Shown here piece after piece: positions 1-34,296 of a stretch of 50,844 bases of DNA; the stretch's first letter is position 1, and each line of letters opens with the position of its first letter. A model generated the notes under the pieces. The model saw nothing but the letters and a program-made list of their open reading frames with translations, had not been told where the DNA came from and did not search any database. The position numbers were made by a program, and so were the translations under genes. This DNA is from Candidatus Acidiferrales bacterium (GTDB taxonomy: Bacteria > Acidobacteriota > Terriglobia > Acidiferrales > UBA7541): positions 1 through 50,844 of the forward strand of contig JASHRU010000403.1 in assembly GCA_030037225.1 (NCBI GenBank), in the 5' to 3' direction.

Positions 1-213
1 CATTACCACCGCAAAGTGGCTGGAACGCGCTGGGAGAAATACTGGTATGCAGTCGGCACCACCGCCTTTCTCCGGGGCTTCCATCTGCTGAACCGCCTAG
101 ACCCCGACGAAAAGCTGGTGCTCAACCTGTTTGTGACCGCGCGGAAGGCGCCGATGGCCGTCCCCCAGTGTGCGGCTCAAGAACAACACGTTCAGGAGGC
201 GGTGCGTTCGTGA
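1..213 (+). CDS. 3' end of a gene cut by the window edge; product not identifiable
   Basis: Frame +1 is open from base 1 to TGA at 211-213 (HYHRKVAGTRWEKYWYAVGTTAFLRGFHLL...FVTARKAP...). The ATG at 16 in the ORF track is probably internal. I cannot name a motif. Confidence 0.35.
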   Translation, partial: HYHRKVAGTRWEKYWYAVGTTAFLRGFHLLNRLDPDEKLVLNLFVTARKAPMAVPQCAAQEQHVQEAVRS

Positions 214-280: not shown

Positions 281-484
281 CAGCCTCTTACGCCAGGCCG
301 CCAGCCCCGATATCCCCAGAGGATGGGCCGCGGCGATATCCGTGAACTCGGAGATCGGCACCAGCACGCGGTCCCAGATGCGCCTCTGGGAAAGAGTGGG
401 CGCGCGCGAGTGCCGGGAATCGAACTTGTAATGCAGAAGGCGGTTGGACGCGCCGGCTGATTCGGCATGGCTAGCCCATAGAAA
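281..484 (-). pseudogene. Remnant of the 3' end of a class I SAM-methyltransferase gene (paralog of 1983..2687)
   Basis: The minus-frame translation ...SNRLL...RIWDRVLVPISEFTDIAAAHPLGISGLAAWRKR aligns with the C-terminus of the 1983..2687 product (...GNRLL...RFWDRFLVPISRFTDIVLAHSLGRSVLAVWRKRR*). About 22 of the last 32 residues are identical by eye. There is no SAM-binding N-terminal part, because the frame runs into the divergent start at 485. The stop position is not conserved. Confidence 0.55.
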
Positions 485-1951
485 ATGCCGCGACTTTCGA
501 GCGAGCATCGTTTGGCGCTCCGGGTAGCTGCCGGGCTCTTTCTCATTTATCTGGCATTCCTGGCTCCCGGCATCTACTCGAGTGACGGCGCTTCCGCGCT
601 CGCGGTCTCCGAATCATTGGTCACGCAGCACAACTTCACCGTGCCCGAAAAGGTGGGAACGCTGGGGGCAGGCGGACAGTTCTATTCCAATTGGTATCCG
701 CTTCTCTCCATCCTGGCCGTTCCGTTCGTGTTCGCGGCGCTTCTGATCAGCCATGCGACCGGTCTGCCCCTTCATTATCTTGCCGGTGTGTGCGTGCTTC
801 CCATGATGGGCGCGCTCACGGCAGCCACCGCAGGCGCGGCTGTGGTGCTCGCCCGGCGATTGGGAGCAGACGAGAAAGGTGCCTGGCTGGCTGGTGTGAG
901 TTTCGGCCTGGGCACGGTGGCCCTTGCCTACGCTCGCGTGTTCTATGCTGACTCGCTCCTCGCGTTTCTGACTATTTCGGCTCTTTGCCTGACGATTGGC
1001 GGATCGCCACGGGAAGTCGCCGCCGCATCCTGTTTGGCTGGTCTGGCGGTTTTGGCCAAGCCCACGGGTGTGATGCTGGCGCCGATCTTGGCCGCCTATT
1101 TGCTCCTCAAGCGCGCCCCTCTCCGGATCTGTCTGTTGCCCCTCTTCGGTGCGGGCGTAGCCGGAGTCTTCTACATGGGCTACAACGTGATGCGGTTTGG
1201 CCATCCGCTCAATTTCGGCCGCGCCCTGGGCTTCGATCCGTCCGTCTTTCTATCGGGGTTTTCCGGTCTGCTCGTCAGTCCAGGCTGTGGACTCTTTTGG
1301 TATTGTCCGCCGGTTGTTCTGGCCCTGTTCGCTTTTCCAACGGCAGTAAGGCGAAAGAAGTGGGAAGCCCTCGCTATCGTTACTGTGTTCGCGGCCTTTC
1401 ACGTATTCCATGCTTTCTATTTGGATTGGCGGGGTGGCTGGTCCTGGGGGCCGCGGTATCTGCTTCCGGGCATCCCTGGTTTGTGCGCACTGGCGGGGCT
1501 GATGCAGGGCCGCGGCCGTAAGGCTCTCGTGTCACTGACTCTTCTCGGTTTCTTCGTGAGCGCCCCAACGTTATTTTCGTTCTATGAGCGTTACTTCGCC
1601 GAGTTGTCGCAACAAGGGATCCACGTGGGCACGGACACGGCCTGGTCCCTTCGTCATGCCCCGCTCCTTCACGTCTGGCCGGGTGCCTTTCGAGAGATTC
1701 AGGATGCGCGGGGCATGAACGCTTCCGAGCTTCTCGGGCAGAGGGAAGTTCCGCGATACTCCGTGGAAGAGTCCAGGGCCCTGCGCATCGTCGCCGTCTG
1801 GTGGTGGGTGCTTCCTGTAGTGCACGTGCAGCGATGGATTGGTTTTCTTGCCGCCCTGCTCCTGGTCATGCTCGGCTCGGTGATTCTCGCGAGGAGCCCG
1901 ATCCCGCCCTGGCGGCCGCTGCCACAGGAGCGCCCCGTTTTCGTCCCATGA
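485..1951 (+). CDS. Polytopic membrane glycosyltransferase, GT-C fold (ArnT/PMT_2-like, GT39/GT83-type)
   Basis: 488 aa with more than 10 hydrophobic segments. The first loop after TM1 carries acidic and Ser residues (GIYSSDGASALAVSESL). The overall architecture resembles lipid-carrier-dependent glycosyltransferases. ATG start. Confidence 0.65.
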   Translation: MPRLSSEHRLALRVAAGLFLIYLAFLAPGIYSSDGASALAVSESLVTQHNFTVPEKVGTLGAGGQFYSNWYPLLSILAVPFVFAALLISHATGLPLHYLAGVCVLPMMGALTAATAGAAVVLARRLGADEKGAWLAGVSFGLGTVALAYARVFYADSLLAFLTISALCLTIGGSPREVAAASCLAGLAVLAKPTGVMLAPILAAYLLLKRAPLRICLLPLFGAGVAGVFYMGYNVMRFGHPLNFGRALGFDPSVFLSGFSGLLVSPGCGLFWYCPPVVLALFAFPTAVRRKKWEALAIVTVFAAFHVFHAFYLDWRGGWSWGPRYLLPGIPGLCALAGLMQGRGRKALVSLTLLGFFVSAPTLFSFYERYFAELSQQGIHVGTDTAWSLRHAPLLHVWPGAFREIQDARGMNASELLGQREVPRYSVEESRALRIVAVWWWVLPVVHVQRWIGFLAALLLVMLGSVILARSPIPPWRPLPQERPVFVP

Positions 1952-1982
1952 CCTTCATGCCCATCCGAACCGGAAAGGATGC

Positions 1983-2687
1983 TTACCGCCTCTTGCGCCA
2001 AACGGCCAAGACCGATCGGCCAAGCGAATGGGCCAGGACAATGTCGGTGAACCGGGAGATGGGGACCAGAAATCGGTCCCAGAAGCGAATCTGGCCAAGA
2101 CGAGGAGCAGGCGACCTTAGCAAAAGCCGGTTTCCGGCTGAGCTCAGCATCCCTAGCGAATCCAAATACATGCATTTTTCTTCCTGCAAGCTTGAAGGAG
2201 CAATCCTTCTCAGTGACTCCCTTGTGTAGCGTCGATGGTGGCCGATGGCTGCGTCAAACGGTGAATAAAGCCATGGCATCGCGGGCGCCACAACCACCAA
2301 ATGGCCAGCCGAGTTCAGATGCTGCGTAGCACGAGCCAGTTCGCCCGCGTCGTCCTCAATGTGCTCCAGGACGTCCATGTAAAGGATGGCGTCGAACCGG
2401 CTTTGCGAGCCGATCGCGTTGAACGTTCCAATCACTATTTCACAATTTCGCAAGGTGGGGGAGACGATTGCCTCAATTCTTGCGGCCAGAGTGGGGTCCG
2501 GTTCGAGGCACACCCATCGCCGTGGACTGCCGTCGTTCAAGGCGAGCGTCGCGGCGCCAATCCCCGCACCAACCTCCAAAACGTCGCCGCTCAGATACGG
2601 GCGCACCTGGGAGCGCACATAGGACTTCCAGTTTGTAGCGTGGGCAAAGATCTCCAGTTCCGTGCCGACGTAGCGGGTCTCAGTCAT
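1983..2687 (-). CDS. Class I SAM-dependent methyltransferase
   Basis: Motif I is VLEVGAGIGAATLAL, the post-I acidic residue is in CLEPD, and the motif II-like stretch is FDAILYMDVLEHIED. The start overlaps the upstream GT2 stop by 8 nt (ATGACTGA). Confidence 0.85.
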   Translation of the reverse strand: MTETRYVGTELEIFAHATNWKSYVRSQVRPYLSGDVLEVGAGIGAATLALNDGSPRRWVCLEPDPTLAARIEAIVSPTLRNCEIVIGTFNAIGSQSRFDAILYMDVLEHIEDDAGELARATQHLNSAGHLVVVAPAMPWLYSPFDAAIGHHRRYTRESLRRIAPSSLQEEKCMYLDSLGMLSSAGNRLLLRSPAPRLGQIRFWDRFLVPISRFTDIVLAHSLGRSVLAVWRKRR

Positions 2688-3711
2688 GCTTCGTAAGCAC
2701 GATCCGCTCCCGGCGGATGAAGAGCGGGCAATCCCGGATCGGGACGAAGCTCGATTGCCCGCGGCTGTAGAGAACCACGAAGGTGAATATCAAAGAAAGC
2801 AAGAGACATTGGCAAAGCAACACCAGCAACAAGCCGCTCGCGGTGGTCGCCCAGCCCGGAATGGCCATATGCGTGGTGAATTTGATGAGCACCGTGGCAA
2901 TCATCAGCGCGATGGTGGCCATCGCGAATATGCCCGTCGCAGTCAGCAGGCGCACCCCCACTGTGTCGCCGAACACGGACATGGCGCTGAACCCGTGGAT
3001 CACCAGGCCCACGAAGTTCATTTTCGACTCTCCCGCCAGCCGTTTCGCGCGGTTGATGGGAATCGAGGTGAAGGGCAATTTGGTCTTGATGACGGAAGCC
3101 GCGTAGTGGTTCCACAGGTCAGAGGTCACCACGAGCGATTGCAGGAAAGCGGCGGGCACGGCGCTGAAATTGCCGATCCGGATATCGAATCCCACCAGCA
3201 GCCGGTGAATCGTTCGGTAAATCTGGTAGAAGAACTTGAAGAAAATCCCCTCGGCTCGCCGGGCTCGCGCAGCGAATACGACTTTCCGCTGTCCTTGCCT
3301 GCCAAACTCTTCCAGCAGGCGCGGAATCTCGGAGGGCTCGTCTTCCCCGTCTCCATCCATGAGCACGACCACGCCTTCAACGCCTTTCAAATGGAGATGC
3401 ACAAGGCCCACGGCCAGGGCGCGCTGGTGCCCCAGATTTTTCTTGAGCTCCAGGATGCGGACTTCATGCAACGTCTGCGGCGAAGTCTTCGGAAACTCTT
3501 GGGGAGGCGGCTCCGTGGAGCCGTCGTCCACCAACACCACTTGTCCCGTGAGACCGTGCTGGCGAAAGGTGGCATCCAGTTTGGAAACGAGAGCGTCGGC
3601 CACAGCCCAGTCATTGAAAACGGGAATCAGAACTGTCAAAGGAAGTGGATCGGAAGGGCTCGCACCAGTTTTGGCGTCGTCGGTCGGATGCACGAATGCA
3701 CCGTGGCCCAA
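2680..3711 (-). CDS. GT2 polyprenyl-phosphate glycosyltransferase (GtrB/ArnC/DPM1-like)
   Basis: N-terminal GT-A domain (LTVLIPVFND, VVLVDDGSTE, DxD-like LMDGDGED) plus two C-terminal TM helices (VRLLTATGIFAMATIALMIATVLI and LLLVLLCQCLLLSLIFTFVVLY). This is the GtrB/ArnC architecture. Confidence 0.85.
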   Translation of the reverse strand: MGHGAFVHPTDDAKTGASPSDPLPLTVLIPVFNDWAVADALVSKLDATFRQHGLTGQVVLVDDGSTEPPPQEFPKTSPQTLHEVRILELKKNLGHQRALAVGLVHLHLKGVEGVVVLMDGDGEDEPSEIPRLLEEFGRQGQRKVVFAARARRAEGIFFKFFYQIYRTIHRLLVGFDIRIGNFSAVPAAFLQSLVVTSDLWNHYAASVIKTKLPFTSIPINRAKRLAGESKMNFVGLVIHGFSAMSVFGDTVGVRLLTATGIFAMATIALMIATVLIKFTTHMAIPGWATTASGLLLVLLCQCLLLSLIFTFVVLYSRGQSSFVPIRDCPLFIRRERIVLTKHD

Positions 3712-3803
3712 AATCCAACGGCAACGGTGGCTATCTTAGCATGGGAGATGCACCGCCAGTTCGGGGCACCCCAGCGTACCAGAACAGCGGTTACTGAACT
3801 CTG

Positions 3804-5510
3804 ATGAGTGCCCGCGAACTAGCCGGACCCGCCTTTCAGCCAGCAGTGGAACGGGACCGCGTATCGGCTCGGCACTGGACGGCGCTGGGAGCCCTGATTG
3901 CCTCTGGCGTGGCGGCCGTGGCCTTGCTGATCTGGGCGTATCGAGGGTTCATTGCTACGCCGTGGTTGCCGCTCTACGACGAGTCGGGCTACTTCAGAGG
4001 CGCCGTGCAGATTTGGCACGCCCTGCGCACAGGCGGTCTGCATGCCCTCGCGCGGGAAACTTGGAATTACCACTTGATTCTCGGCGGGCCGTTCCTCTCG
4101 CCTTATTGTCTCGCCTTGGGATTTATCTTTGGGAGCACCACTCTGGAGGCCGCGCGCTGCGCCAGCTTGCTTGCTGGTTTCTTTTCCTGGGTGGGCATCG
4201 TGTGGTTGGCCGCCGAACTGGTGGACGAAGGAAAGGCATATGCGGCGGCGATCGCGGGGGTCCTCTGGGGAACTTCGCCCATGTTCCTCTTTTACGCCTC
4301 GAGGAGTCTTTACGACAGCTTTGCCCTGGTGACGACCGCCTTTTGTCTCATCGCCGCAGCCCGATTCGCCCGCAGCGGCGGACGCTGGGCAGCGGTGGCC
4401 ACTGGGTTTCTGGTTTGTTTGTCGTACGAAATCAAGTGCAACGTCGGCATGCTCCTGTTAGCGGCCTTGTTTCTCGGTATGGCCTATCCGGAGATCCGCG
4501 CGCGCCTTGCAAAAGACACACGTGGATTTCTGGCGCCCCTTACGCGACCGTGGTTCCTGCTGGCGGCCAGCACACTGCTGCCCTTAATTGCCTTCTTGTC
4601 GGTGGACGGTGTGCGGGCACTCCTGCGCTACCTTCACGGCTATCCCTTCGACCCATTGGGCCCGGGGGACTACCTTCTGTATTATCCGCGCTCGCTATTC
4701 CAGGAATACGTCTCCACTCCGTGTCTCGCAGTGGTTCTCCTTTTTGGCGTTCTGTACTGGGCTTGGAAAGGATGGGGCAAGCCCGTGGCGCGCGTCGCGT
4801 TGCTCTATGTCGTCCTTCAATCCATCAGTGCCACACTGCACCCTCAAAAAGATGGCCGTTTCATTTGGGGTGCTGTAGCTGTAGCAGCCTCTCTCGCTGG
4901 CGCGTGTCTCGCTCAGGAACTCTCCCGGCTCGCGTTGCGTCCGCGCTTCGCGGCCTCGGCCGTTCTCGTTGCCGCGCTCGCCTATTCCATTTGGGCCGCC
5001 CCGGCATCAGCGGAGCAGTTCTTCTTGCAGGTTCAGGTGGCCCCAACCCCCGCGCAACAGGCGACCCTTCTTCAGGGATTGAATTTCGTCCGCGACAATA
5101 CCGCCCGCCAGGAGACCCTTCTGGTGGCTGGCTTTGCCGATGAGGGAATCAACTTGCCGATGCTCCAGCAATTCCTCATGAATCCCGTTTCCGGCCAACT
5201 GCAAGAGATGCCGGCGCTCCCCTATGCGGAGCTCCCCGCGAACTGGGGGATCTCGGCACAGCCCTCGCCGTTCTACGCCGAGCAATTGGAAAAAGCCTTC
5301 TTACAAAATCCGGACGCAAGCCTGGTGATCTTCGATCACGAGGCCGGCTCGCCGTTTCGCGGACGTCTGTATCCCTGGGTTTTTGCCTGGCAGGAGAACT
5401 ACGGCACTGCTGCGCGAAATATGAAGAGCTTGGCAGTCACCGCCCAGCTGGATTCACCTACGGGCTTGCGCGTCACAATTTACCGCCGCAGGACGATCAG
5501 CGCCCGATGA
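3804..5510 (+). CDS. Polytopic membrane glycosyltransferase, GT-C fold (ArnT/PMT_2-like) with C-terminal soluble domain
   Basis: 568 aa. TM1 is followed by a loop with a DE motif (WLPLYDESGYFRGA). There are about 11 further TM segments and then a ~170 aa hydrophilic C-terminal domain. This is the first gene of the long plus-strand operon. Confidence 0.7.
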   Translation: MSARELAGPAFQPAVERDRVSARHWTALGALIASGVAAVALLIWAYRGFIATPWLPLYDESGYFRGAVQIWHALRTGGLHALARETWNYHLILGGPFLSPYCLALGFIFGSTTLEAARCASLLAGFFSWVGIVWLAAELVDEGKAYAAAIAGVLWGTSPMFLFYASRSLYDSFALVTTAFCLIAAARFARSGGRWAAVATGFLVCLSYEIKCNVGMLLLAALFLGMAYPEIRARLAKDTRGFLAPLTRPWFLLAASTLLPLIAFLSVDGVRALLRYLHGYPFDPLGPGDYLLYYPRSLFQEYVSTPCLAVVLLFGVLYWAWKGWGKPVARVALLYVVLQSISATLHPQKDGRFIWGAVAVAASLAGACLAQELSRLALRPRFAASAVLVAALAYSIWAAPASAEQFFLQVQVAPTPAQQATLLQGLNFVRDNTARQETLLVAGFADEGINLPMLQQFLMNPVSGQLQEMPALPYAELPANWGISAQPSPFYAEQLEKAFLQNPDASLVIFDHEAGSPFRGRLYPWVFAWQENYGTAARNMKSLAVTAQLDSPTGLRVTIYRRRTISAR

Positions 5511-6451
5511 GTCTGGTTGAACTTCCGTCCCCTCCCCAAACTCCTATGGAAACGGAGAAGCAGGATCTACGTCGCTACTGGGACGCTCATCCCATTTCCA
5601 CCGACAGCGTGCCGTACGAAGTCGGCTCGCGGGAATCCTTCGAAGCCATCTACGAAAAGTGGAAGCAAACCATCGATCAGATGCGCCTCGACTTCCTCGA
5701 ATCCTGCCGCGGACGCAAAGTGCTCGAAGTCGGCTGCGGCATCGGCAAGGACGCGCGCTATCTCGCGGAAAATGGGATCGACTACACCGGCCTCGATTAC
5801 AGTTTCCGCGCGCTGGGTCTCGCGCAGAAGCATTTCGGCTTCGCGGGCCTGCGCAAGCGCTTCGTGAACGCAGACGCAGTCGCGCTTCCCTTTGCCGACG
5901 ATACCTTCGGCCTCGCTATGTCCATTGGGGTCATCCATCACATCGTGGGCACGCCTAAAGCCTGCCGCGAGTTGGTGCGCGTAACTGCCCCCGGCGGAAC
6001 CGTGCGGGTGATGTTCTACAACCGCGAGTCGTACCACTACCTGCTGGTGAATTGGATCGTTCGCCCGCTCATCTGGATGATGTTGCATGTGCGCCCGCTC
6101 GAAATCTTTCTCCGCTGGGCGCCGGAAAAGTATCGCCACCTTTTTGCCATTTCCAAACAGCACGGACTCTCCCGTGAGCAGCTGCTGGCTACCAGCGCGG
6201 ACACGAGCTTCGCCGGGCAGGACAACTTCATCCCGCGCTCGGGTTTCTGGACCGAGCGGGAAATGCGGGAGTTGTTCTCCGGAATGGAGGATTTTTGTTT
6301 CGTTCGCCGCGACCTGAAATACTTCCCGTTCCCGTTTCTGAGCGGCTGGGTGGAACCTCGCTGGGGATTTTTCCTGACCATGACGGCAAGGAAGCCCGTC
6401 CCGGCGTTGGCAAGAACCAGGGCGGCCGCAGCAGCCACAGCTTCTGACTGA
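5507..6451 (+). CDS. Class I SAM-dependent methyltransferase (Methyltransf_11-like)
   Basis: Motifs VLEVGCGIGKDARYL, GLDYS and ADAVALPFADDTFGLAMSIGVIHH. ATGA overlap with the upstream stop (5507-5510). Confidence 0.85.
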   Translation: MSLVELPSPPQTPMETEKQDLRRYWDAHPISTDSVPYEVGSRESFEAIYEKWKQTIDQMRLDFLESCRGRKVLEVGCGIGKDARYLAENGIDYTGLDYSFRALGLAQKHFGFAGLRKRFVNADAVALPFADDTFGLAMSIGVIHHIVGTPKACRELVRVTAPGGTVRVMFYNRESYHYLLVNWIVRPLIWMMLHVRPLEIFLRWAPEKYRHLFAISKQHGLSREQLLATSADTSFAGQDNFIPRSGFWTEREMRELFSGMEDFCFVRRDLKYFPFPFLSGWVEPRWGFFLTMTARKPVPALARTRAAAAATASD

Positions 6452-6455
6452 GCGT

Positions 6456-8186
6456 ATGCGCTGGACACTCAGGAATCCTCTTCCGCCTGAAAAGCCCGAT
6501 GCGCATGGTGTGGCTGCGTTGTCTGCCGCCACCGTGACGACAGCCCTGGAAAGGGTCGATACGCATGCGCCCGCAGCAGGAGGGAGCCTTCTGACGACGG
6601 TCCTCTCCGACTGGATTCCGTCTGCGCTCCGATGGGCAGTCGTCGGCGCGGCCATTCTATACATCAGCGTCTATCTCTTTGTGGCTTACCGGCGCATGGT
6701 TTATCCCTTCGACCTTGAACGGCTGGAAGGGAGTGCGGTGGAGCAAGTGGACCGCGTGCTGCGCGGAGAGCCCCTATTCGTTGCGCCCAGCCTCAATTAT
6801 GTGCCCATGGTTTACACGCCGGTCTATTTCTACGTGTCCGCTCTGCCAGCAAAACTGATGGGCCTCGGCTTCGCGCCCCTCCGGCTTGTGTCCATTCTGG
6901 CTTCACTGGGCTGCTTTGCGCTCCTATATATGTTCGTCCACAGGGAAACCTCCAGCCATTATTGTTCGCTGGTCAGCGTGGGCTTGTTCGCGGCCACATT
7001 CCGAGAAACGGGCGATTGGCTCGAATTAGCGCGAACGGATTCGCTTTATCTGTTCCTGCTTGTGCTGGGCGCGTATCTGCTGCGCTGGAAGCGCGGATCA
7101 AAGTGGCTGGTGCTCGCGGGCGGATGCGCTGCCCTTGCCTTCCTCACCAAGCAGACCGCTTTGCTCGTCATCCTTCCGCTGGTGATTTACGCTGCATCTC
7201 TTGGATTTCGTCTCTTCGTCGCATTCGCTGGCGCGGCGGGCGTACTGGGCGCCGGTGGAATCGCGCTGTTGCACCTCCGCAGCGGGGGTTGGTCCACATT
7301 CTATTTGTTTTCATTGACCTCCTCGTTTCTCACCTTGAAGGGCCACATCGTGCTCTTCTGGATCAACGACATCTTTCGTGTCCTTCCTATCGCCGTCGCG
7401 TTCTGTGTGCTCTTTTTCCTGGACGCCGCGGACGAGAAAGATCGTCGCGCTGTGTGGTTTTACACTTGTTTCGGGGCGGGTATGCTGGCTGCCTCCTGGC
7501 TTTACTCTCTCAACTGGGGCGCATATCTGAACGGGCGCCTTCCCGTTTATTTTTTCCTCTGCCTGGCTACGGGTCTAGGCACCCACCGGGTTCTGGACCT
7601 TCTCGCAACGCGCGCTGGCGATCGGGCCCGCATCGGCCAAAGCGTGCTGTTCGCCGCGCTATTGATTCAGTCTTGTGCGTTGGTTTACGACCCCCGGCTG
7701 GTCATTCCCGGGAGCAGGGATGTCGAACTTGGCAGGCAGGTCTTGGCCAGAATTACTCAGATCCCGGGTCCGGTGTACGTGCCCAACCACACCTACCTTT
7801 CAGCCCTGGCCGGAAAGCAAAGCTTCGCGCACATACTGAACCTCTGCACTTTGCTCGTTTCGGGAAACCCTCACACGGTCGCGCCTTTAGGTGAACAACT
7901 CCGCGATGCGTTCCGCAACAAGCGCTTCAGCGCCGTGGTTCAGGATGCCGTTTGGACCGGAGACGTAGTGGCCGAAGTGTATCGGTCGGACTTTCTCGAG
8001 AATTATCAGCCCGACCAGGAAATCGTGTACCCCGAAAGCGATTCCCGTCGCCTGGCCACAGGTCTCCCAGCGCCCCAGCGAGTCGCCTTCATCATTTACG
8101 TGCCCAAGGCCACTAATAACGCCTCACAAATCGCCCTGCCTCCCGATCGAAGTCAGAGTTCCGGCCAGCTCAAGGCGCCCCAATAG
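6456..8186 (+). CDS. Polytopic membrane glycosyltransferase, GT-C fold (ArnT/PMT_2-like)
   Basis: 576 aa. The acidic first loop is YPFDLERLEGSAVEQVD, followed by more than 10 TM segments and a hydrophilic C-terminal ~150 aa. The start lies 4 nt after the previous stop. Confidence 0.65.
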   Translation: MRWTLRNPLPPEKPDAHGVAALSAATVTTALERVDTHAPAAGGSLLTTVLSDWIPSALRWAVVGAAILYISVYLFVAYRRMVYPFDLERLEGSAVEQVDRVLRGEPLFVAPSLNYVPMVYTPVYFYVSALPAKLMGLGFAPLRLVSILASLGCFALLYMFVHRETSSHYCSLVSVGLFAATFRETGDWLELARTDSLYLFLLVLGAYLLRWKRGSKWLVLAGGCAALAFLTKQTALLVILPLVIYAASLGFRLFVAFAGAAGVLGAGGIALLHLRSGGWSTFYLFSLTSSFLTLKGHIVLFWINDIFRVLPIAVAFCVLFFLDAADEKDRRAVWFYTCFGAGMLAASWLYSLNWGAYLNGRLPVYFFLCLATGLGTHRVLDLLATRAGDRARIGQSVLFAALLIQSCALVYDPRLVIPGSRDVELGRQVLARITQIPGPVYVPNHTYLSALAGKQSFAHILNLCTLLVSGNPHTVAPLGEQLRDAFRNKRFSAVVQDAVWTGDVVAEVYRSDFLENYQPDQEIVYPESDSRRLATGLPAPQRVAFIIYVPKATNNASQIALPPDRSQSSGQLKAPQ

Positions 8187-8189
8187 CCG

Positions 8190-9431
8190 ATGCGCGTGTT
8201 GCTCATCACAAAGAGCTTTCCGCCGGTCTCCTGCGGGGTGGGGGATTATGCCAGCCGCCTCGCTGAGGAGCTGACCGCAGCCGGCAACGGCGTGACCGTG
8301 CTCACCGCACCCGCCGATGCGCCGCGCCATTTTTCATCCAGCCTCCGCGAGCAACCTCTTCGCGGCTGGCGTGACCTGCGGCCGGCGATCGAGGCCATTG
8401 TCGCATCTGCACCCGACCACGTGCAGCTCGAATACTCGGGATACGCCTGGGGACGCTGGGGCTTCGCTTGGTGGCTCAATGCCCTCTTGTTCTGTCTCAG
8501 GCTCCGGAGAATTTCCGTGCATGTGGGCCTGCACGAACTGGCCATTAGCATGCGCCAACATCCGCTTCAAACGCCCGTGGCGCTCGCCCAATGGTTTCAC
8601 ATCGCGCTTACTCTCGGCGCTGTGAATTCGGCGGCCGTAAACATGCGCTCGCGTGTCTCGTCTCTGGAGCGCTTCTTCCCCTGGTGGCGCGAAAAGATCC
8701 GCTACCGGCCGAATTCGAGCAATATCCCCGTAATTCGATACTCCGAAGCCGAACGCGCAGACTACCGGCGCGAGCGCGGTGTTTCTACCGGCGAACTCGT
8801 CGTGGCCACGTTCGGCCTGTTTCATCCCGCCAAGAACTATGAAGCGCTGATAGAGGCGGTCTCGCTCGTTCGCGGCTCGCGGACCGTGCGCTTGTGGATG
8901 CTGGGAAATTTCGCTGTGGCTTCGCCGGAATACATCGCGCGCCTGAAAAACACGGAGCATGCGGCGGGCATTCAAGATGCCGTATGGTGGTCGGGCAGGC
9001 TTGAAGCAGCAGACATTTCCCGCGCGCTTCAGTCTGCCGACGTGTTCGTGCTCCCACAGCCCGACGGCCACCTCACGCGCAGTGGAGCCTTCATGGCCGC
9101 CGCGGCACATGGGCTGCCCGTTGTGGCCGTCCGCCAGCCCGGAGGCCGCGACCAGGCCGAATTCACCCACGCGGAGCATTTGTGGCTCGCGAAGCAGAGC
9201 ACAGGGGAAGAATTCGCGGCCGCCATTCGCCAGTTGGCCGGCGATCCCGCCGGGGCGGAGCGCATGGGCCGCAACCTTCAGGAACTCTACGCTGCGCGGT
9301 TTGATTGGCCGATTGCGGCCGCGGCTTTCCGCAGGGCCGATGCCGTTCCGCCGGAATCCGCCTCGGACGAATCATCCGTTGAACGCGGGCCCGTGGCGGC
9401 CGTAACGCACCCCGGAGGAACCAGGACGTGA
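8190..9431 (+). CDS. Glycosyltransferase family 4 (GT-B)
   Basis: N-terminus MRVLLITKSFPPVSCGVGDYASRLAEEL and a C-terminal nucleotide-sugar binding region (...VFVLPQPDGHLTRSGAFMAAAAHGLPVVAV). The start lies 3 nt after the previous stop. Confidence 0.85.
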   Translation: MRVLLITKSFPPVSCGVGDYASRLAEELTAAGNGVTVLTAPADAPRHFSSSLREQPLRGWRDLRPAIEAIVASAPDHVQLEYSGYAWGRWGFAWWLNALLFCLRLRRISVHVGLHELAISMRQHPLQTPVALAQWFHIALTLGAVNSAAVNMRSRVSSLERFFPWWREKIRYRPNSSNIPVIRYSEAERADYRRERGVSTGELVVATFGLFHPAKNYEALIEAVSLVRGSRTVRLWMLGNFAVASPEYIARLKNTEHAAGIQDAVWWSGRLEAADISRALQSADVFVLPQPDGHLTRSGAFMAAAAHGLPVVAVRQPGGRDQAEFTHAEHLWLAKQSTGEEFAAAIRQLAGDPAGAERMGRNLQELYAARFDWPIAAAAFRRADAVPPESASDESSVERGPVAAVTHPGGTRT

Positions 9432-10921
9432 ACTTCGATATTACTTCCAACCGCCGGGTTGGTCCCGACCTCCTGCTCACCCTTCCGGTGCTGCTGTTGG
9501 TTGTTTTTGCCCTGCCCTGGATCGCGTTCCGTGTGGCCTACCAGCAGTATATGCCTTTGATTGCGGGCGTGTTTATCGTCGCCGACATTTGTTTCACGTT
9601 CGCCTGGTGGCGGGCTTCCGTCTATCTCTTCGCCTTCTATGTTCTGGTCGAAGGCTTTTTGATTAACGCTTACGGCTCTACGGCGCTCAATCTGTTGAAG
9701 GACGCGCAGCTCCTTCTCATCTTCTTCCGCCTGGCCGTTGCCCTGATCGCGCGGCGCATGTTCCCCGTCCCGCACACTGGTTGGGTGGTTCCCTTCTTTG
9801 GCTTCGCCGTGTATTACACCGCGGAAATCTTCAATCCGCTCCTACCCACAATCCTGGTTGGCTTGATCGGGGCACGAGTCACCCTCCTGTTCTTCCTCTG
9901 TTTCATCGTGGGCTACTGGTTTTTCGACGACCGGGAGCAGGTGATCCGCTTCCTGCGCTTCCAGAACTGGATAAGCATTCCCATAGCCATCTTTGGAGTG
10001 GTCCAATACTTCACTGGTCCTGAATTGTTGTTGCGCATCTCTCCGGGTTTTCAGCGTGCTATTTTTTACGCGAACGACCCGAAGCATCCCGAAATGGGAT
10101 TTTACTTCCGCACCATCTCCACGTTTGCATCTACGGCCGGACTTTCGCAATTCCTCTGGGTGGCTGCGATGCTTTCCATTGCGCTGATGATGATTTCGCC
10201 CCGGCCGATGGACAAGATAATGACGCGCGTGGCGCTGTTGGCGCAGGCCTGCGGAACGCTCAGCACGGGCGGCCGCGGCCCGTTCATCCTGCTTTTCGTC
10301 TCCTTGTTCCTGGCCTTCGGCCTGATGGGCCGCGTGCGGCAAGCGATCATGCCCTCGCTGTTCATCGTTGCTTGCTTGTTCGCTTCTCTGCTTTTCTTGG
10401 GGCCGACCGTGCAAGCGCGATTCGCCAGTATCTTCGACATGGAAATGGTACGCGACCGGAACATGGCGCTCGCCGTAGGCGAATTTGAAGCCGCCGGGGA
10501 CTCGCCCATTGTGGGACTCGGTGCGGGAATAGGATGCGCGGCCTCCAACCGTCTCGAATCCACGAGCGTGGCCGTCGTCGGCTCGGAGAACCAGTTTGCG
10601 CGTATCCGGAACGAATGCGGACTGGCCGGACTCGCGCTGTTCAGTGTCTTTACGGCCGGACTCTTGCTGGAGACCTACCGGCAGGCCCGCGCCCTCCGGG
10701 ACCACGATCTGAAAGTCATCGGATGCGTCGTGGCCAGTTTCTGCATAACCAACATTCTGACCTTTCCCATCGGCCAGCCGCTCGATATACCGCCGATGAA
10801 TTTCTATTTCTGGTTCTTTCTGGGCCTGCTAGCCGCCTTGCTGCGGATCCAGGCCACAGAGAACGCCGCTGGAATTCAGCCGGCTCCCGCCGCACGTTCA
10901 TTCTGGAGCTTCGAGCGCTGA
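9428..10921 (+). CDS. O-antigen ligase/polymerase family membrane protein (Wzy_C-like)
   Basis: 497 aa with about 11-12 TM segments. It has a Wzy_C-like stretch (LSTGGRGPFILLFVSLFLAFGL) and a larger periplasmic loop. The GTG start overlaps the upstream stop (GTGA). Confidence 0.7.
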   Translation: MNFDITSNRRVGPDLLLTLPVLLLVVFALPWIAFRVAYQQYMPLIAGVFIVADICFTFAWWRASVYLFAFYVLVEGFLINAYGSTALNLLKDAQLLLIFFRLAVALIARRMFPVPHTGWVVPFFGFAVYYTAEIFNPLLPTILVGLIGARVTLLFFLCFIVGYWFFDDREQVIRFLRFQNWISIPIAIFGVVQYFTGPELLLRISPGFQRAIFYANDPKHPEMGFYFRTISTFASTAGLSQFLWVAAMLSIALMMISPRPMDKIMTRVALLAQACGTLSTGGRGPFILLFVSLFLAFGLMGRVRQAIMPSLFIVACLFASLLFLGPTVQARFASIFDMEMVRDRNMALAVGEFEAAGDSPIVGLGAGIGCAASNRLESTSVAVVGSENQFARIRNECGLAGLALFSVFTAGLLLETYRQARALRDHDLKVIGCVVASFCITNILTFPIGQPLDIPPMNFYFWFFLGLLAALLRIQATENAAGIQPAPAARSFWSFER

Positions 10922-10927
10922 GCCTCC

Positions 10928-12496
10928 ATGGACGCTGCACAGAATAAAGCCCTCGACACTCTGGTCATTGTCATGGTTCTGCTCGGCCTGGGAATGGCGA
11001 TGATGATTTCGAATCGCTGGTTTACTTTCATTGACGATGAAATTGCCATGCTTCTGGACGCCACGATTCCAGCTCAGCAGACCATCCACTCTTTCACCGA
11101 CGGCACCGGCTTGCACCGCCATCCCCCCCTGTACGACCTGCTGCTTGCCGGATGGCTGCGTTTGAGCGGAGGCCGCGTCAGCCTGCTGCGCGTGCCGGCC
11201 ATCATCTTCTACCTGCTCGGACTGTGGTTTACGGTTCAGGCCGCGAGGTGGATCGCGGGTGTGGCAGCCGCGCGTGCCGCCCTGTGGATCGGCGTGGTGT
11301 TTCCCTACGGATTTCACTTCGGAAGGATCGCCGGGTGGTATTCGTTTTCCTTCCTTACCCTCGCGCTGCTCACCTTTGCCTATCTCTGGATGGAAGCGAA
11401 GCCGGCATGGGGGCGCTGGGTGTTGCTTGTTGTTGCCTGCGAGTTGGCTGTTTATACGAACTATTTCCTGGCCGTTCTAATCGGACTCCTGGCCCTCGAT
11501 TACTGGATCCGCCACAGTGGTGATGCGAAGCCTGTGGCCGCGGCAGGCGCGACTGTAATTGTCATTCTGCTCGGGTTCCTGCCCTTGCTTCGTGCGTTGT
11601 TGTTCCGCCTCTTCGCGGATCAGGGCATTCTGCGGCCTGTTTATTCGGGGCTGGCCACGATGTTCTTCTGCGGTTACAACGTGTATACGCTCTTCGTCAG
11701 CGAATCGGTTGCCCCCTGGTTCTGGTATTTCAGCATTCCGGCGCTCGCGGCCATCGCCTACTGCTCCGTTCTCCTTTTGCGCCACGGCCCGCCGGCAGCA
11801 CGGCGCCTGTTCCTCGGTTTTCTGCTCTGCACCTTGGCGATGACGCTGCTGAATCTGATTAACACCAAGCGACTGTTGTTCCTTTCGCCGTGGCTTTTGA
11901 TTTCTCTGGCCGCGATGCTCGGCAGCCTTCCCCGACCTGTTCTTCGGAAAGGCGCAATCCTGGCGCTCGGCCTAGTCGGCGCTATTGGGTGGTTTGGAAT
12001 TCTTTCGCGCCGCTATTACGCGGCGCCCCGGCTCATCGAGCCGTGGGAACCGGTTGCCGAACGGGCTGCCGGAGAGGTAAGGAAGGGCGCAGTGTTGATT
12101 GGCAACAATCCATCGTTCTTTTTCTACCTGACGAATGCGATCCGCTCTCCGGGCGAATCAGGATCGGGTGAGTTTGTTGGCTCTTACCCTGTATGGCTGA
12201 GCCATCCCCAATTGTTTGATCCCATCCAGTGGCTCCAAGCGGGACAGGTGTACGGCCCGACTACCCTCTTAGTCAAGGGCGCTACCGACGAGGCGTACTG
12301 GGGATCCACGGCTGCTACAGAGGCAGCGCTCGACGAGAACTGCCATCTCGACGCAGTTGAACGGAAAATGGCAGACACCGGCTTCGCATGGAAGCAGCGC
12401 TGGTTTGCAGATGCGCGTCAACCTGCCTGGCGGATCGAGGTACGTACTTACCAGTGCCCCAGCGCAAGCAGAACCGCTGCGAAACTGAACAATTGA
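10928..12496 (+). CDS. Polytopic membrane glycosyltransferase, GT-C fold (PMT_2/ArnT-like, GT39-type)
   Basis: 522 aa. The first loop has FTFIDDEIAMLLDA followed by HRHPPLYDLLL, a DE plus HPPL pattern typical of PMT_2 proteins. Multiple TM segments and a soluble C-terminal domain follow. Confidence 0.75.
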   Translation: MDAAQNKALDTLVIVMVLLGLGMAMMISNRWFTFIDDEIAMLLDATIPAQQTIHSFTDGTGLHRHPPLYDLLLAGWLRLSGGRVSLLRVPAIIFYLLGLWFTVQAARWIAGVAAARAALWIGVVFPYGFHFGRIAGWYSFSFLTLALLTFAYLWMEAKPAWGRWVLLVVACELAVYTNYFLAVLIGLLALDYWIRHSGDAKPVAAAGATVIVILLGFLPLLRALLFRLFADQGILRPVYSGLATMFFCGYNVYTLFVSESVAPWFWYFSIPALAAIAYCSVLLLRHGPPAARRLFLGFLLCTLAMTLLNLINTKRLLFLSPWLLISLAAMLGSLPRPVLRKGAILALGLVGAIGWFGILSRRYYAAPRLIEPWEPVAERAAGEVRKGAVLIGNNPSFFFYLTNAIRSPGESGSGEFVGSYPVWLSHPQLFDPIQWLQAGQVYGPTTLLVKGATDEAYWGSTAATEAALDENCHLDAVERKMADTGFAWKQRWFADARQPAWRIEVRTYQCPSASRTAAKLNN

Positions 12497-12515
12497 TTTC
12501 AATGAGCCTTGCGAA

Positions 12516-13733
12516 ATGCCAAAACTGACTCCGGCGATTCCGCAGCGTGCGCTCCGGGTGCTGTTCGTCCAGAGCACTACAGAGGTCGGCGGCGCGGAGG
12601 TGGCGTTGTTGACCATGCTTCAAAACATGGAGCGATCCGCCGTCGAACCCCTTGTTGCCTCTCTCGGTTTTGGAGAAGGCCTCCTGCCCGAACGAATCGA
12701 GCGCATGGGCATACCCATTTTCCATCTTCCTCGAGGACGATTTCGCAATGTGGCGAGCACAGCGGCCAAGATTCGTGCGCTGCACAAGCTAATCCGCAAG
12801 CAGGGGGTAGACGTTGTGGTGAGCAATGGCGGCCACGCAAACCTGTTTGCTCGTCCGGCGGCGAGTCTGGCGCGGCGTCCCTGCGCTTGGTGGGTTCACG
12901 GTTACACGCAGGCTTCCCTTCCGGAAGGCAGGATCCCCATCGCTCGTGCCGAGCGCCTGCTTGCAGCGGACGCGCTCTATGCAAACTCTACGTTTACAGC
13001 AGGCTTGCTGGCCCGTGATTTCCCCGGCCATCCATGCATCCGCCTGGTGCGTTACGGAGTGGATCTCAAGAGATTTCGTCCGAATCCTTCAGCCGGCGCC
13101 AGGGTTCGCAACGAAGAAAGGATTCCGGCTGACCAACTGCTTATCGGCATCTTCGGGCGTTTGCAGCATTGGAAGGGCCAGCACATTTTCCTTCGCGCCG
13201 CGGGTTTGATGGCCGGCCGCGGCACGCGGTTCATGGCTGTGGTGGTGGGCGGCTCTTTGTTCGGGCTCGAGCCGCAATATGCCGATGAGCTCCGACGCAT
13301 GGCAGATGAGCCACTGCTGGCCGGCCGGGTACGATTTCTGGGGAACCGCTCAAATCCTGAGGATTGGATGAACGCCTGCGATGTGGTGGTGCACGCGTCC
13401 GTCGAGCCGGAACCATGGGGGTTGGTGGTTGCGGAGGGGATGGCCTGCGGCCGGACCGTCTTGGCCTCAGCTGCTGGTGGCCCGCTGGAGATGATTGACC
13501 ACAAACGAACCGGTTGGCTCTCCGCCCCGGGAGACGAAGTGGCAATGGCCGCTTGGTTGGAAATCCTGCTCGCAAACTCCGCACTGCGGGAGGGGCTCGG
13601 CGCGGCCGCCCGGCGGCACGCCGAAGAAGAATTTGAACCCCGTCGCGCAGCGGCTGTGTTCTCCACCGAGCTGTGGCGGTTGTGGGCAACAAGGATTGAA
13701 AGTATGCAAATGTTGACGGAGCCGGTGCCGTGA
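12516..13733 (+). CDS. Glycosyltransferase family 4 (GT-B)
   Basis: N-terminus LRVLFVQSTTEVGGAEVALLTML and an EX7E-type region HASVEPEPWGLVVAEGMACGRTVLAS. Confidence 0.85.
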   Translation: MPKLTPAIPQRALRVLFVQSTTEVGGAEVALLTMLQNMERSAVEPLVASLGFGEGLLPERIERMGIPIFHLPRGRFRNVASTAAKIRALHKLIRKQGVDVVVSNGGHANLFARPAASLARRPCAWWVHGYTQASLPEGRIPIARAERLLAADALYANSTFTAGLLARDFPGHPCIRLVRYGVDLKRFRPNPSAGARVRNEERIPADQLLIGIFGRLQHWKGQHIFLRAAGLMAGRGTRFMAVVVGGSLFGLEPQYADELRRMADEPLLAGRVRFLGNRSNPEDWMNACDVVVHASVEPEPWGLVVAEGMACGRTVLASAAGGPLEMIDHKRTGWLSAPGDEVAMAAWLEILLANSALREGLGAAARRHAEEEFEPRRAAAVFSTELWRLWATRIESMQMLTEPVP

Positions 13734-14488
13734 AGCCGCAAAGCCTCACACTGGATGACGAACGCCCGCGTCCTGACGGGCCGGACCGCGTCTCCTACCA
13801 CCACCACTTGGCTCGTTATCGCTTCGCGTTCAAAAACATGAAGGGTGGCGAACGCGTGCTCGACGCCGGTTGCGGCACGGGTTACGGTTCACGGCTGCTG
13901 CGCGAGAAGGCAGACTCAGTTGTGGGAATCGACAACTCACCTCTGGCTGTCGGGTATGCGCATGAGCAATTCGCCGGTCCAGGTGTGCGGTTTGCGCGCA
14001 TGGATTGTCAACGCCTGGCCTTTCCTTCGTCCCGCTTCGATTTGATCGTTTGTTTCGAAGTCTTCGAACACCTGGAAAACCACGATGACTTCTTGAACGA
14101 ATGCCTCCGCGTCCTCGGTCCCCGGGGAACGCTGATTCTCTCCACTCCAAACGTGGTAACCGCAGACTTGCACATGAAGTCAATCGGCCAGTCGAATCCC
14201 TTTCACATCAATATGCTGGATCTTTCCACTTTTCGCCGGGTCTTGAATCGGCACTTCCGCGATGTCCAGATGTTTGGCCAGCGCCGGCGGGGCAACCGGC
14301 TCTATTCCGCGCTGCGTGCGTTGGATGTGTTCAATTTCCGGCTACGCCTGCTGGGCAATGGGCAGCGCGAGCGCCTCCAGCAGGCGTTTGAAGTGCCAGT
14401 GGGCGAGGCCGCCGTGCCTGATCACTGGGTGATCGAACGCTCTCAACTTCGCCAGGCTAATCAGTTCGTTGCCATCTGCATGAGGTAG
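13730..14488 (+). CDS. Class I SAM-dependent methyltransferase
   Basis: Motifs VLDAGCGTGYGSRLL, GIDNS and FDLIVCFEVFEHLEN. The GTG start overlaps the upstream stop (GTGA). Confidence 0.85.
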   Translation: MKPQSLTLDDERPRPDGPDRVSYHHHLARYRFAFKNMKGGERVLDAGCGTGYGSRLLREKADSVVGIDNSPLAVGYAHEQFAGPGVRFARMDCQRLAFPSSRFDLIVCFEVFEHLENHDDFLNECLRVLGPRGTLILSTPNVVTADLHMKSIGQSNPFHINMLDLSTFRRVLNRHFRDVQMFGQRRRGNRLYSALRALDVFNFRLRLLGNGQRERLQQAFEVPVGEAAVPDHWVIERSQLRQANQFVAICMR

Positions 14489-14491
14489 CTC

Positions 14492-15742
14492 GTGGCCGCC
14501 GCAACCGCCTCTGGTCTCCAAACTGCTGAGCTTCAGCTGGGCAGTGGCCTCCGCATCGCCGTTGTGACACCCGAGTTCTATCCCACGGGTGGCACAGAGC
14601 GCGTCACCCGTGCGCTCCTTCAAGCGCTCGCGCGTGACCACGAGGTGTGTCTGTACTCTCACTTGTCGAGCGGCAAGGCGGATACCCAGATCTGCCATCA
14701 TCCTGTGCCGGTCCTGCCGGGACCGGGACTTGCCCGCCAGCTCAGCTTCTTCGCGGCAGCCTCGCTGGCTGTCTGGAAAGGCGAGCGGCGCCATGGCGCG
14801 TACGATTGCGTGTATTCGCCCGGCCCGAACTGCGCGCAAGTCCACGTCTCAACGGCCCATTTCTGCCAGGCGCGCCAGCGCGACCTGCTCCGCAGCGGGC
14901 GTTTCCAGCCTGCAGCAGCCACTTTAGATGACCGTCTGCGTCGCTGGCATCGCGCGCTCTACGCGAACTGGTATTCTCAGCTCGAAAATTGGTTCTACGC
15001 CTCGCGCCGGCTCGAAAAAGTCATTTGTCCCGCCGAGGTCGTCCGCCGCGACCTGATCGATTGCTACCGCGCCTCGCCCGACCGCCTCGTAGTTGCTCAC
15101 TCGGGTGTGGATACGTCCAGTTTCAATCAGGAGCGCCGCGGCCGGCTGCGCAATTCCGTCCGCAATGAACTGGGACTCGCACACGGCGATTTTTGCTTTC
15201 TCTTTGTGGGCACGGACTGGGTCAGAAAATGCCTGGTCACCGTTCTGGACGCCCTCGCTGGGGTTCCCGAGGCGTTGCTCTACGCCGTCGGCCCTTATGA
15301 TCCGGAGCCCTACCGGCGTTACGCGGCACGCGCAGGTGTGGCTGGACGCGTACGCTTTCCGCCTCGCCGCGCCGACATTATTTCCTACTACGCCGCGGCG
15401 GATGCCGTCGTGGCCCCGTCGTTCTACGAACCGTTCGGCCTGGTTCCGCTGGAAGCCGCGGCTTGTGGCGTTCCGTCCATCATCACACGGCAGATGGGAG
15501 TAGCTGAAGTCTTGGACGGCGAGAGCGCTATCGTGCTGAACGACCCGGCCGATTCCGCAGCACTGGCTCGGGCCATGCGCCGACTGATGGACGACGCGGA
15601 TCTGCGTCAGCGGCTCGTATCCCATGGCGAACTACGCGCACGGATGAGCCCTTGGGACGGCATCAATCGCTCTACTCTGGAAGCCATTCGGGACTCTGCC
15701 TCGCGACGGAAGGCTGCCGCGCGACAGGCCGCGCCGGCATGA
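14492..15742 (+). CDS. Glycosyltransferase family 4 (GT-B)
   Basis: N-terminal LRIAVVTPEFYPTGGTERV and C-terminal VAPSFYEPFGLVPLEAAACGVPSII. GTG start 3 nt after the previous stop. Confidence 0.85.
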   Translation: MAAATASGLQTAELQLGSGLRIAVVTPEFYPTGGTERVTRALLQALARDHEVCLYSHLSSGKADTQICHHPVPVLPGPGLARQLSFFAAASLAVWKGERRHGAYDCVYSPGPNCAQVHVSTAHFCQARQRDLLRSGRFQPAAATLDDRLRRWHRALYANWYSQLENWFYASRRLEKVICPAEVVRRDLIDCYRASPDRLVVAHSGVDTSSFNQERRGRLRNSVRNELGLAHGDFCFLFVGTDWVRKCLVTVLDALAGVPEALLYAVGPYDPEPYRRYAARAGVAGRVRFPPRRADIISYYAAADAVVAPSFYEPFGLVPLEAAACGVPSIITRQMGVAEVLDGESAIVLNDPADSAALARAMRRLMDDADLRQRLVSHGELRARMSPWDGINRSTLEAIRDSASRRKAAARQAAPA

Positions 15743-16953: not shown

Positions 16954-16955
16954 GT

Positions 16956-20050: not shown

Positions 20051-20094
20051 TTCCTGATTAGCGTTCGATTGCGCAAGATCCACTCCACACAACA

Positions 20095-34287: not shown

Positions 34288-34296
34288 GGGTAACCT

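Follow-up and report, generated by a model that had tools for sequence, protein, structure and literature searches.

Four GT-C-type glycosyltransferase families and a GtrB-like synthase-methyltransferase pair in a probable acidobacterial surface-polysaccharide locus

Positions 485-14488 of a 50,844-nucleotide (nt) stretch of a 'Candidatus Acidiferrales' bacterium (GenBank assembly GCA_030037225.1, contig JASHRU010000403.1, positions 1 to 50,844; hereafter the window) probably encode the variable, decorating functions of a very large surface-polysaccharide locus, in which exchangeable GT-C glycosyltransferase modules would act in the periplasm after export and a synthase-methyltransferase pair, GT2-MT1, would supply a lipid-linked donor. 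Four putative GT-C membrane proteins (A, B, C and D) lie there together with a candidate GtrB/ArnC-type glycosyltransferase (GT2) and three class I S-adenosylmethionine (SAM) methyltransferases (MT1, MT2 and MT3). The case is made from gene content, fold and family assignments, synteny and co-occurrence. A first-pass annotation of this DNA had matched the set to no described pathway; multi-component transmembrane glycosylation has already been described, and by analogy the locus appears to be a larger version of it, not a new pathway. Acidobacteriota are a dominant soil phylum with almost uncharacterised surface polysaccharides, and the locus offers a first modular view of acidobacterial surface-glycan diversification: it suggests that surface diversity arises by plugging GT-C modules into a conserved backbone pathway, as in enterobacterial and streptococcal serotype conversion.

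Four GT-C families and a GtrB/ArnC-type synthase

The genes of the interval are listed with strand, predicted product (aa, amino acids) and supporting match.

485..1951 (+): A, 488-aa GT-C membrane glycosyltransferase (AlphaFold model, AF2, and Foldseek)
1983..2687 (-): MT1, 234-aa cytoplasmic class I SAM methyltransferase (Pfam Methyltransf_23, 1.6e-8)
2680..3711 (-): GT2, 343-aa GtrB/ArnC-type polyprenyl-phosphate glycosyltransferase with C-terminal transmembrane (TM) hairpin (phmmer against the PDB)
3804..5510 (+): B, 568-aa GT-C protein, PMT_2-like, with a soluble C-terminal domain of about 150 aa (PMT_2, 1.2e-4)
5507..6451 (+): MT2, 314-aa class I methyltransferase (Methyltransf_11, 3e-20)
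6456..8186 (+): C, 576-aa GT-C protein (PMT_2) with a soluble C-terminal domain (PMT_2, 6.4e-10; PMT, 5.8e-4)
8190..9431 (+): GT4a, cytoplasmic GT4 glycosyltransferase (Glyco_trans_1_4, 1.9e-16)
9428..10921 (+): Wzy/HpsL-like 497-aa polytopic protein of the O-antigen polymerase/ligase superfamily (NCBIfam, below cut-off)
10928..12496 (+): D, 522-aa GT-C protein (PMT_2/'GT39-family') with a soluble C-terminal domain (PMT_2, 4.4e-5)
12516..13733 (+): GT4b, cytoplasmic GT4 glycosyltransferase (Glycos_transf_1, 5e-29)
13730..14488 (+): MT3, 252-aa class I methyltransferase (Methyltransf_11, 2.2e-23)

The open reading frames (ORFs) named in the first-pass annotation were all found at their positions, and its layout holds with two amendments: MT1 and GT2 are on the minus strand, and the interval also contains two GT4 genes and the Wzy/HpsL-like protein. 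Its three class I methyltransferases are borne out by the Pfam matches listed; it had described two of them as coupled to the upstream gene, and all three overlap that gene (GT2/MT1 by 8 nt, B/MT2 by 4 nt and GT4b/MT3 by 4 nt). GT2 and MT1 form a two-gene minus-strand unit divergent from B, which is the first gene of a long plus-strand operon; this run (3804-29135) is nearly gap-free, with junctions of -4 to +46 nt where starts are unambiguous, and B, C and D are embedded in it with junctions of 3-6 nt. A promoter and terminator scan of the window gave counts not above those of shuffled sequence.

A, B, C and D are predicted to be GT-C-type enzymes, as first proposed, on the basis of family matches and, for A and at low confidence for B, of modelled folds. 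The PMT_2 match of C exceeds the Pfam gathering score (39.9 bits) and those of B and D fall just under it; the model is matched by 9 of 11 B-family and 26 of 28 D-family members. Protein A of the window has no Pfam match, PMT_2 is touched by 7 of 24 A relatives, and an NCBIfam match to the putative glycosyltransferase LA_3751/LA_3752 (1e-13) lies below cut-off; literature searches on LA_3751/LA_3752 found nothing. Hydropathy places 8-12 TM-like segments in each of the four proteins. Fold comparison was needed because sequence searches against the PDB were empty, and the comparison with ArnT, Pmt and PglB that had been suggested retrieved GT-C enzymes first for the models of both A and B. The A model (predicted local distance difference test, pLDDT, 85.5; predicted template modelling score, pTM, 0.89) is an all-helical bundle of about 12 TM helices without a large periplasmic domain. 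Its best Foldseek match is ArnT (5f15, 1e-5) and the top 31 matches are all GT-C enzymes, among them PglB, AglB, STT3, DPY19, AftB, ALG9, Pmt4 and Emb. For the B model, ALG12, AglB, ArnT, ALG9, AftD and AftA come first. Family A, which spans several phyla and has no Pfam model, thereby gains a putative GT-C assignment backed by a predicted structure.

Acidic residues directly after the first TM helix are the signature of the GT-C catalytic loop. Acidic first-loop motifs had been pointed out in the four proteins, and they do stand directly after the first TM helix and are conserved within each family: IYS-x-DG in A (D34 and E43 invariant), WLP-xx-DES in B (D59 and E60 invariant), ELE-x-x-EG in C (E91 at least 90% conserved) and DDE...H-x-HPPL in D (D37, E38, H65, P66 and P67 invariant). 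This loop would face the periplasm. The soluble C-terminal domain of D carries two invariant cysteines (C472 and C510), which fit a periplasmic location. When family profiles were compared with hhalign, A and C were the sole linked pair (85% probability, E 7e-6), and A-D, C-D and B-D were not significant. Since the proteins match no solved structure by sequence and only the A and C profiles pair, they represent four distinct GT-C families and not recent duplicates. Family A is about 40-56% identical across Acidobacteriota, cyanobacteria, delta-proteobacteria and Sumerlaeota, and family C is large, with 1368 representatives at E<1e-30. One D-family PMT_2 protein with 41% identity (L092:10001-11554) lies alone among transposase, Fic, HTH and PD-(D/E)XK genes; as this copy is far from any polysaccharide genes, the D family is not confined to polysaccharide loci.

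GT2 is predicted to be a polyprenyl-phosphate sugar synthase of the GtrB/ArnC type with a C-terminal TM hairpin, in line with the original assignment. Against the PDB (phmmer) it matches ArnC (8vxh, 5e-16, residues 24-299 of 343), GtrB sll0501 (5ekp, 2e-10, residues 23-309) and DPMS (5mlz, 2e-4); its hydrophobic segment spans residues 251-318, and the ArnC and GtrB alignments extend from the catalytic domain into the hairpin. The NCBIfam scores (ArnC and PgfS, 1e-15) are far under the equivalog cut-offs, and we therefore assign no sugar specificity. The MT1 profile matched generic class I methyltransferases only in the PDB. A plus-strand ORF (2686-3804), considered as an alternative to GT2, has no family matches.

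These relationships raise the question of whether some or all of the GT-C enzymes act on lipid A or core, as ArnT does, or on envelope proteins, as PMT enzymes do, their placement in the locus serving co-regulation only. ArnT is the best structural match of A, the matched Pfam families are PMT_2/PMT, and ArnC is the closest solved relative of GT2. However, the window holds no ArnA-, B-, D-, E- or F-like genes and A-D have no phmmer or profile match to ArnT chains, and we rejected their assignment as ArnT (GT83); Pfam reports PMT_2 or weak PMT matches without MIR or PMT_4TMC domains, and we likewise rejected protein O-mannosyltransferase (GT39), the 'GT39 family' label on D relatives being an automatic annotation. 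With B, C and D inside a polysaccharide operon, and with GT-C genes whose presence varies between loci like that of serotype-variable decoration genes, we regard a non-polysaccharide acceptor as very improbable.

Exchangeable GT-C genes on a conserved core

A second 'Candidatus Acidiferrales' metagenome-assembled genome (MAG; locus L007, 89% identical) keeps the gene order of the window at 81-92% protein identity. The remaining relatives belong to uncultured Acidobacteriaceae and Acidobacteriota. Sub-modules of the set are found again in several further loci, which together with the order kept in L007 means that the clustering of GT-C genes is not due to chance. The sets found were as follows.

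Window and L007: A, GT2-MT1, B, C, D
L003: A and D
L087 and L091: GT2-MT1, B, D
L088: GT2-MT1, B
L089/L090: C homologue (56-58% identical) and a 590-aa protein

The last protein (L089:11647-13419) stands directly after the C homologue and matches neither Pfam nor the window proteins (E<=1e-5).

MT2, GT4a, the Wzy-like gene and GT4b form a core common to all compared loci, and MT2 is 79-91% identical across L003, L007, L087, L088 and L089, regardless of the GT-C genes in each. We count MT2 and MT3 among the conserved cytoplasmic core genes of the locus and not with the GT-C genes, with which they had been grouped. From varying GT-C sets on a constant core it follows that the GT-C genes are accessory and individually exchangeable.

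Left of A, L007 and the more distant L003 and L089 encode a Wzy_C (O-antigen-ligase-like) protein, a NusG paralogue, Wzm and Wzt(Wzt_C), together with several methyltransferases, GT2-family enzymes and a GT4-methyltransferase fusion; in L007 this 639-aa fusion lies at the window's left edge, preceded by GT2-family enzymes, methyltransferases and Wzt. On account of these upstream genes in relatives, we take the window to be the right-hand part of a very large O-antigen-type locus with an ATP-binding-cassette (ABC) transporter.

GT2-MT1 follows B: the pair is present, divergent beside B, in 5 of 5 loci with B (window, L007, L087, L088 and L091) and absent in both loci without it. A, C and D each occur in related loci without such a GT2 within 10 kb. 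This co-occurrence bears on the proposal that four or five GT-C enzymes modify one acceptor in turn and all draw on the same lipid-linked, perhaps methylated, sugar, supplied by a single GT2. The genes do lie within 12 kb with GT2-MT1 between A and B, the full set is kept in the second MAG, and known synthases such as SccN can feed several GT-C enzymes. However, GT-C genes occur in every combination from one to four, gained and lost singly; MT2 and MT3 are independent of GT-C content, and the GT87-like fifth candidate is 18 kb off in a separate divergent pair. Hence, of the interpretation in the first-pass annotation, polysaccharide elaboration at the periplasmic face stands as the most likely role, and the concerted single-synthase battery is improbable.

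Families A to D can also be followed beyond these relatives. Across phyla, 13 of 30 A-family loci have within 10 kb a GtrB-like GT2 that ends in a pair of TM helices; in cyanobacteria it comes immediately after A, and a delta-proteobacterium has the order MT1-GT2-A. A strict tblastn co-occurrence table (E<=1e-10, at least 50% coverage) had suggested that A never travels with GT2, which clustering of the locus ORFs showed to be a sensitivity artefact. In a Coleofasciculaceae MAG (L016:1504-6712), A is followed by a GtrB-like GT2, a 530-aa protein without Pfam match and a 315-aa PF03706 protein, and ORF clustering finds the same order in L018, L022, L023, L025 and L033 (Pfam was run on L016). 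Such loci look like a complete synthase, flippase and GT-C set, with a flippase of an unusual type resembling the MprF flippase domain.

GT-C-like gene arrays recur in environmental bacteria. Among 43 A-centred genome loci of at least 18 kb, a sample biased in that every locus was picked for its A homologue, large polytopic ORFs number two per approximately 21 kb at the median, and 8 loci have at least four. Two Chloroflexota loci, from a Thermoflexus MAG (L069) and a Chloroflexia MAG (L085), each carry eight consecutive polytopic ORFs of 466-977 aa with at least 8 TM helices over about 21 kb, much larger arrays than that of the window, and several of these ORFs match the A, C or D profiles.

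The Wzy-like protein leads to a credible, though rather unlikely, alternative by analogy with lactococcal polysaccharides. In this reading, GT4a, the Wzy-like protein, D and GT4b would together with the GtrB-like GT2 build a lipid-carried oligosaccharide that, once flipped, the Wzy-like protein polymerises and D grafts, as a WpsJ-like 'ligase' and not as a side-chain transferase of single sugars, onto an ABC-exported backbone. The Wzy-like protein matches NCBIfam models for HpsL (3.6e-16) and a repeat-unit polymerase (TIGR04370, 6e-6), neither reaching its cut-off, and its orthologue in L091 has a weak Wzy_C match. The gene for D comes immediately after that for the Wzy-like protein in the window, L007, L003, L087 and L091, an ABC transporter and a Wzy-like protein share a locus in relatives, and the lactococcal precedent has a GacI-type GT2, cytoplasmic glycosyltransferases, a polymerase and the GT-C enzyme WpsJ (PMC10821137). 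However, the window has no Wzx-type flippase, D is missing from L088 and L089, both of which have the Wzy-like gene, L003 combines D and the Wzy-like gene but has no GtrB-like GT2 within 10 kb, and the initiator of the window is of the WecA (undecaprenyl diphosphate, Und-PP) type, which suits an ordinary Wzy route.

We prefer a mechanism of decoration after export, in which topology, donor, acceptor and the timing and target of methylation are what we infer from the assignments and co-occurrence above. A glycan of the O-antigen or exopolysaccharide (EPS) type would be started on undecaprenyl phosphate (Und-P) by the WecA-type enzyme, built by many cytoplasmic GT4 and GT2 enzymes, methyltransferases and amidotransferases, and, by analogy with the close relatives, exported through Wzm/Wzt, an ABC transporter whose genes would lie immediately beyond the left edge of the window. 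Each of the four GT-C enzymes would then transfer a sugar, or in the case of D possibly a short chain, from a polyprenyl-phosphate donor onto the exported glycan, and as exchangeable modules they would diversify the surface structure. That they act on glycan already exported or polymerised is suggested by operon context and mosaic distribution. GT2 would make an Und-P-sugar at the cytoplasmic face for the flanking B and possibly also for A, and MT1 most likely methylates the Und-P-linked sugar before flipping, since SAM is not available in the periplasm. The donors for C and D and the flippase would be encoded elsewhere.

The GT2-MT1 cassette

GT2-MT1 is the least described element of the locus. 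A scan of metagenome contigs with the MT1 profile gave 54 loci with a full-length MT1 homologue, and a GtrB-like GT2 abuts MT1 on the same strand in 33 of them (14 of the 23 with at least 900 bp of flank on both sides). Fused forms also occur. A single 598-aa ORF (L104:4835-6628) runs from GT2, including the TM hairpin, into a full-length MT1, and a soluble GT2 domain without predicted TM helices is fused to MT1 in L151:1774-3864 and L154:2936-4804, making two to three such fusions. They may be assembly artefacts, yet more than one independent contig carries such a fusion. Of the 30 loci having at least 2.5 kb of flank, 24 encode a large membrane protein nearby (at least 380 aa, at least 8 TM helices), often in the order GT2, MT1, membrane protein. 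When tested, some of these membrane proteins were PMT_2, Alg9-like, A-like or C-like, one was an acyltransferase, and many had no Pfam model.

Methylation before flipping is the simplest order of events, as SAM is found in the cytoplasm and GtrB topology would place the C-terminus, together with any fused MT1, on that side of the membrane. ArnD is a precedent for enzymatic modification of a lipid-linked sugar before flipping. We offer as a tentative possibility that a GT2 with an overlapping or fused MT1 is a widespread two-enzyme unit making a methylated polyprenyl-phosphate sugar, from which flanking GT-C enzymes install O-methyl sugars outside the cytoplasm, the four GT-C families being interchangeable, acceptor-specific readers. 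If so, the unit would represent both a class of donor and a way of making methylated side branches for which we found no description; a literature search for GtrB-type synthases with a coupled methyltransferase returned nothing relevant and no characterised example. The recurrent and sometimes fused cassette suggests a testable answer to how methylated sugars could be added on the outer face of the membrane.

Several observations weigh against the decoration reading and the role it gives to GT2-MT1. A nucleotide sugar, or the chain as it grows in the cytoplasm, is another possible substrate of MT1. No GtrA/SMR, MATE or Wzx flippase was matched by Pfam or NCBIfam and the window contains no small ORF with four TM helices, in agreement with the first-pass annotation, which had seen no GtrA-like protein; for lack of a flippase candidate the three-component set is incomplete in the window. 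By sequence, A-D match none of the PDB chains, and the A and C family profiles retrieved nothing relevant there. The fold models cover A and B, and that of B is of low confidence (pLDDT 59). A stands without any nearby GT2 in 17 of the 30 loci compared across phyla. Wzm and Wzt were seen only in relatives, the window starting downstream of that point, and a Wzy-like gene in the operon is a poor fit to a pure ABC-transporter pathway.

Two further candidates were discarded in the search for lipid-sugar components. A minus-strand ORF (122-508), a possible GtrA, has no family matches, and a UbiA-family gene (35458-36501), considered as a polyprenyl-phosphoribose synthase as in GT136 systems, is MqnP, beside MqnE, of menaquinone synthesis. 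A 151-aa ORF on the minus strand (37120-37575) has three TM helices and an RNPIY motif; it is not of the GtrA type and is reminiscent of membrane methyltransferases resembling isoprenylcysteine carboxyl methyltransferase.

Known systems and flanking genes

What sets this locus apart from known systems is the combination of four GT-C families with one synthase, no flippase gene in the locus and a synthase-coupled methyltransferase in a Gram-negative acidobacterium. Kelly et al. 2024 (PMC11127046) have widened the three-component Gtr O-antigen glycosylation of Shigella and Salmonella to include pentofuranoses and GT136. As there, a GT2 synthase with C-terminal TM helices adjoins a GT-C gene in or near an O-antigen locus with a cytoplasmically made backbone, modification would follow polymerisation, and exchangeable modules would diversify serotype. 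In contrast to Gtr systems, the window has no GtrA/SMR/MATE flippase gene, four GT-C proteins of four families per synthase and a methyltransferase gene overlapping that of the synthase, and its genes are chromosomal and operon-embedded, not phage-borne. The ArnC/ArnT system is the closest in solved structures (for GT2 and A, respectively) and differs in its accessory Arn genes and in the polysaccharide-operon context of the window.

One synthase had been said to feed one GT-C enzyme in characterised systems, which is too narrow: in the Streptococcus mutans serotype c carbohydrate (SCC) locus, with two synthase/GT-C pairs, the SccN product is used by SccM and a further, unidentified transferase (PMC11754754). 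SCC (SccN/SccM and SccP/SccQ) and the S. pyogenes group A carbohydrate (GAC; GacI/J/K/L) are similar to the present locus in having an ABC-exported backbone, several GT-C enzymes and Und-P-sugar synthases per locus, a synthase product that serves more than one transferase, and a flippase not identified. They differ in belonging to the cell wall of Gram-positive bacteria, in matching two GT-C enzymes with two synthases and in having a known donor, Glc-P-Und, and they have no synthase-coupled methyltransferase. Lactococcal cell-wall polysaccharide clusters also encode several GT-C enzymes, and in the rhamnose-rich cell-wall polysaccharide (Rha-CWPS) a GacI-type GT2, cytoplasmic glycosyltransferases, a polymerase and GT-C enzymes graft a second glycan onto the ABC-exported rhamnan (PMC10821137). 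Comparing gene roles and not protein families directly, the lactococcal cluster (WpsA/B, WpsG, WpsH/I and WpsJ) shares with the locus an ABC-exported backbone, a GacI/GtrB-type GT2, cytoplasmic glycosyltransferases, a polymerase-type membrane protein and GT-C enzymes in one cluster, whereas the window also has a WecA-type Und-PP initiator.

The mycobacterial GT-C batteries (Emb, Aft, Mpt and PimE, fed by decaprenylphosphoryl arabinose, DPA, and polyprenyl-phosphomannose, PPM) likewise have many GT-C enzymes elaborating one glycan outside the membrane from few polyprenyl-phosphate donors; they differ in phylum and protein families, and no UbiA-type phosphoribosyltransferase is present here, the UbiA homologue of the window being MqnP. 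Ppm1 in mycobacteria and Dpm1 in eukaryotes each supply numerous GT-C enzymes, and MtxS pairs with a GT-C transferase, MtxT. A dedicated GT2-type synthase can deliver an unusual modified sugar, as MtxS (Rv0539) does in methylthioxylose capping (PMC12088412).

The other features of the locus and its flanks are listed below.

1..213 (+): cut gene, 3' end only (frame 1 open from base 1, stop at about 211-213)
14492..23315 (+): GT4c, GT4d, AsnB-like 1, GT4e, AsnB-like 2 and GT4f, in this order (Pfam)
23312..24874 (+): WecA/MraY-family polyprenyl-phosphate sugar-1-phosphate transferase, the putative initiator (PF00953, 1.9e-39)
24921..29135 (+): heparinase II/III-like protein, then a fused ADH/Gfo-Idh-MocA oxidoreductase; end of the operon (family library matches)
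30576-32207 (-): cellulose-synthase/PgaC-like GT2 (CelA-like, 8e-40)
32198-33538 (+): GT87-like GT-C protein (Pfam GT87, 1e-6, 29.1 bits against a cut-off of 25)

The initiator also matches TIGR02380 (wecA, 2.8e-29) below the cut-off. The two AsnB-like amidotransferases are paralogous (within 16956-22020), and one scores 596 bits against the XrtA/PEP-CTERM amidotransferase cut-off of 817 (9e-179). The oxidoreductase is a 705-aa fusion of ADH_zinc_N and Gfo/Idh/MocA domains. The AsnB-like pair, the heparinase II/III-like protein and the fused oxidoreductase are features of PEP-CTERM-type EPS loci; the window has no exosortase.

The GT87-like protein, named earlier as a fifth GT-C enzyme, is upheld by its Pfam score. 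Its gene lies 18 kb from the 485-14488 set, beside the cellulose-synthase-like GT2, and the two form a divergent pair (30576-33538) with nominally overlapping starts, that of the GT87-like gene being a GTG at 32198 or at about 32300. No tie to the 485-14488 set turned up, and no test aimed at one was made; the pair may be a separate synthase-plus-GT-C system. The ORF at 33584-34843 appears spurious.

No tRNA-Sec or other tRNA genes were found in the window. Housekeeping genes flank the locus, namely MqnE and MqnP of the futalosine route to menaquinone (34297-36501) and SelA, selenocysteine synthase (39835-41253). The guanine-cytosine (GC) fraction is 0.59-0.62 in the GT-C-rich part of the window (1-16000) compared with 0.63-0.66 over the remainder of the operon (16000-28000) and in the housekeeping genes, which fits a variable, horizontally exchanged segment.

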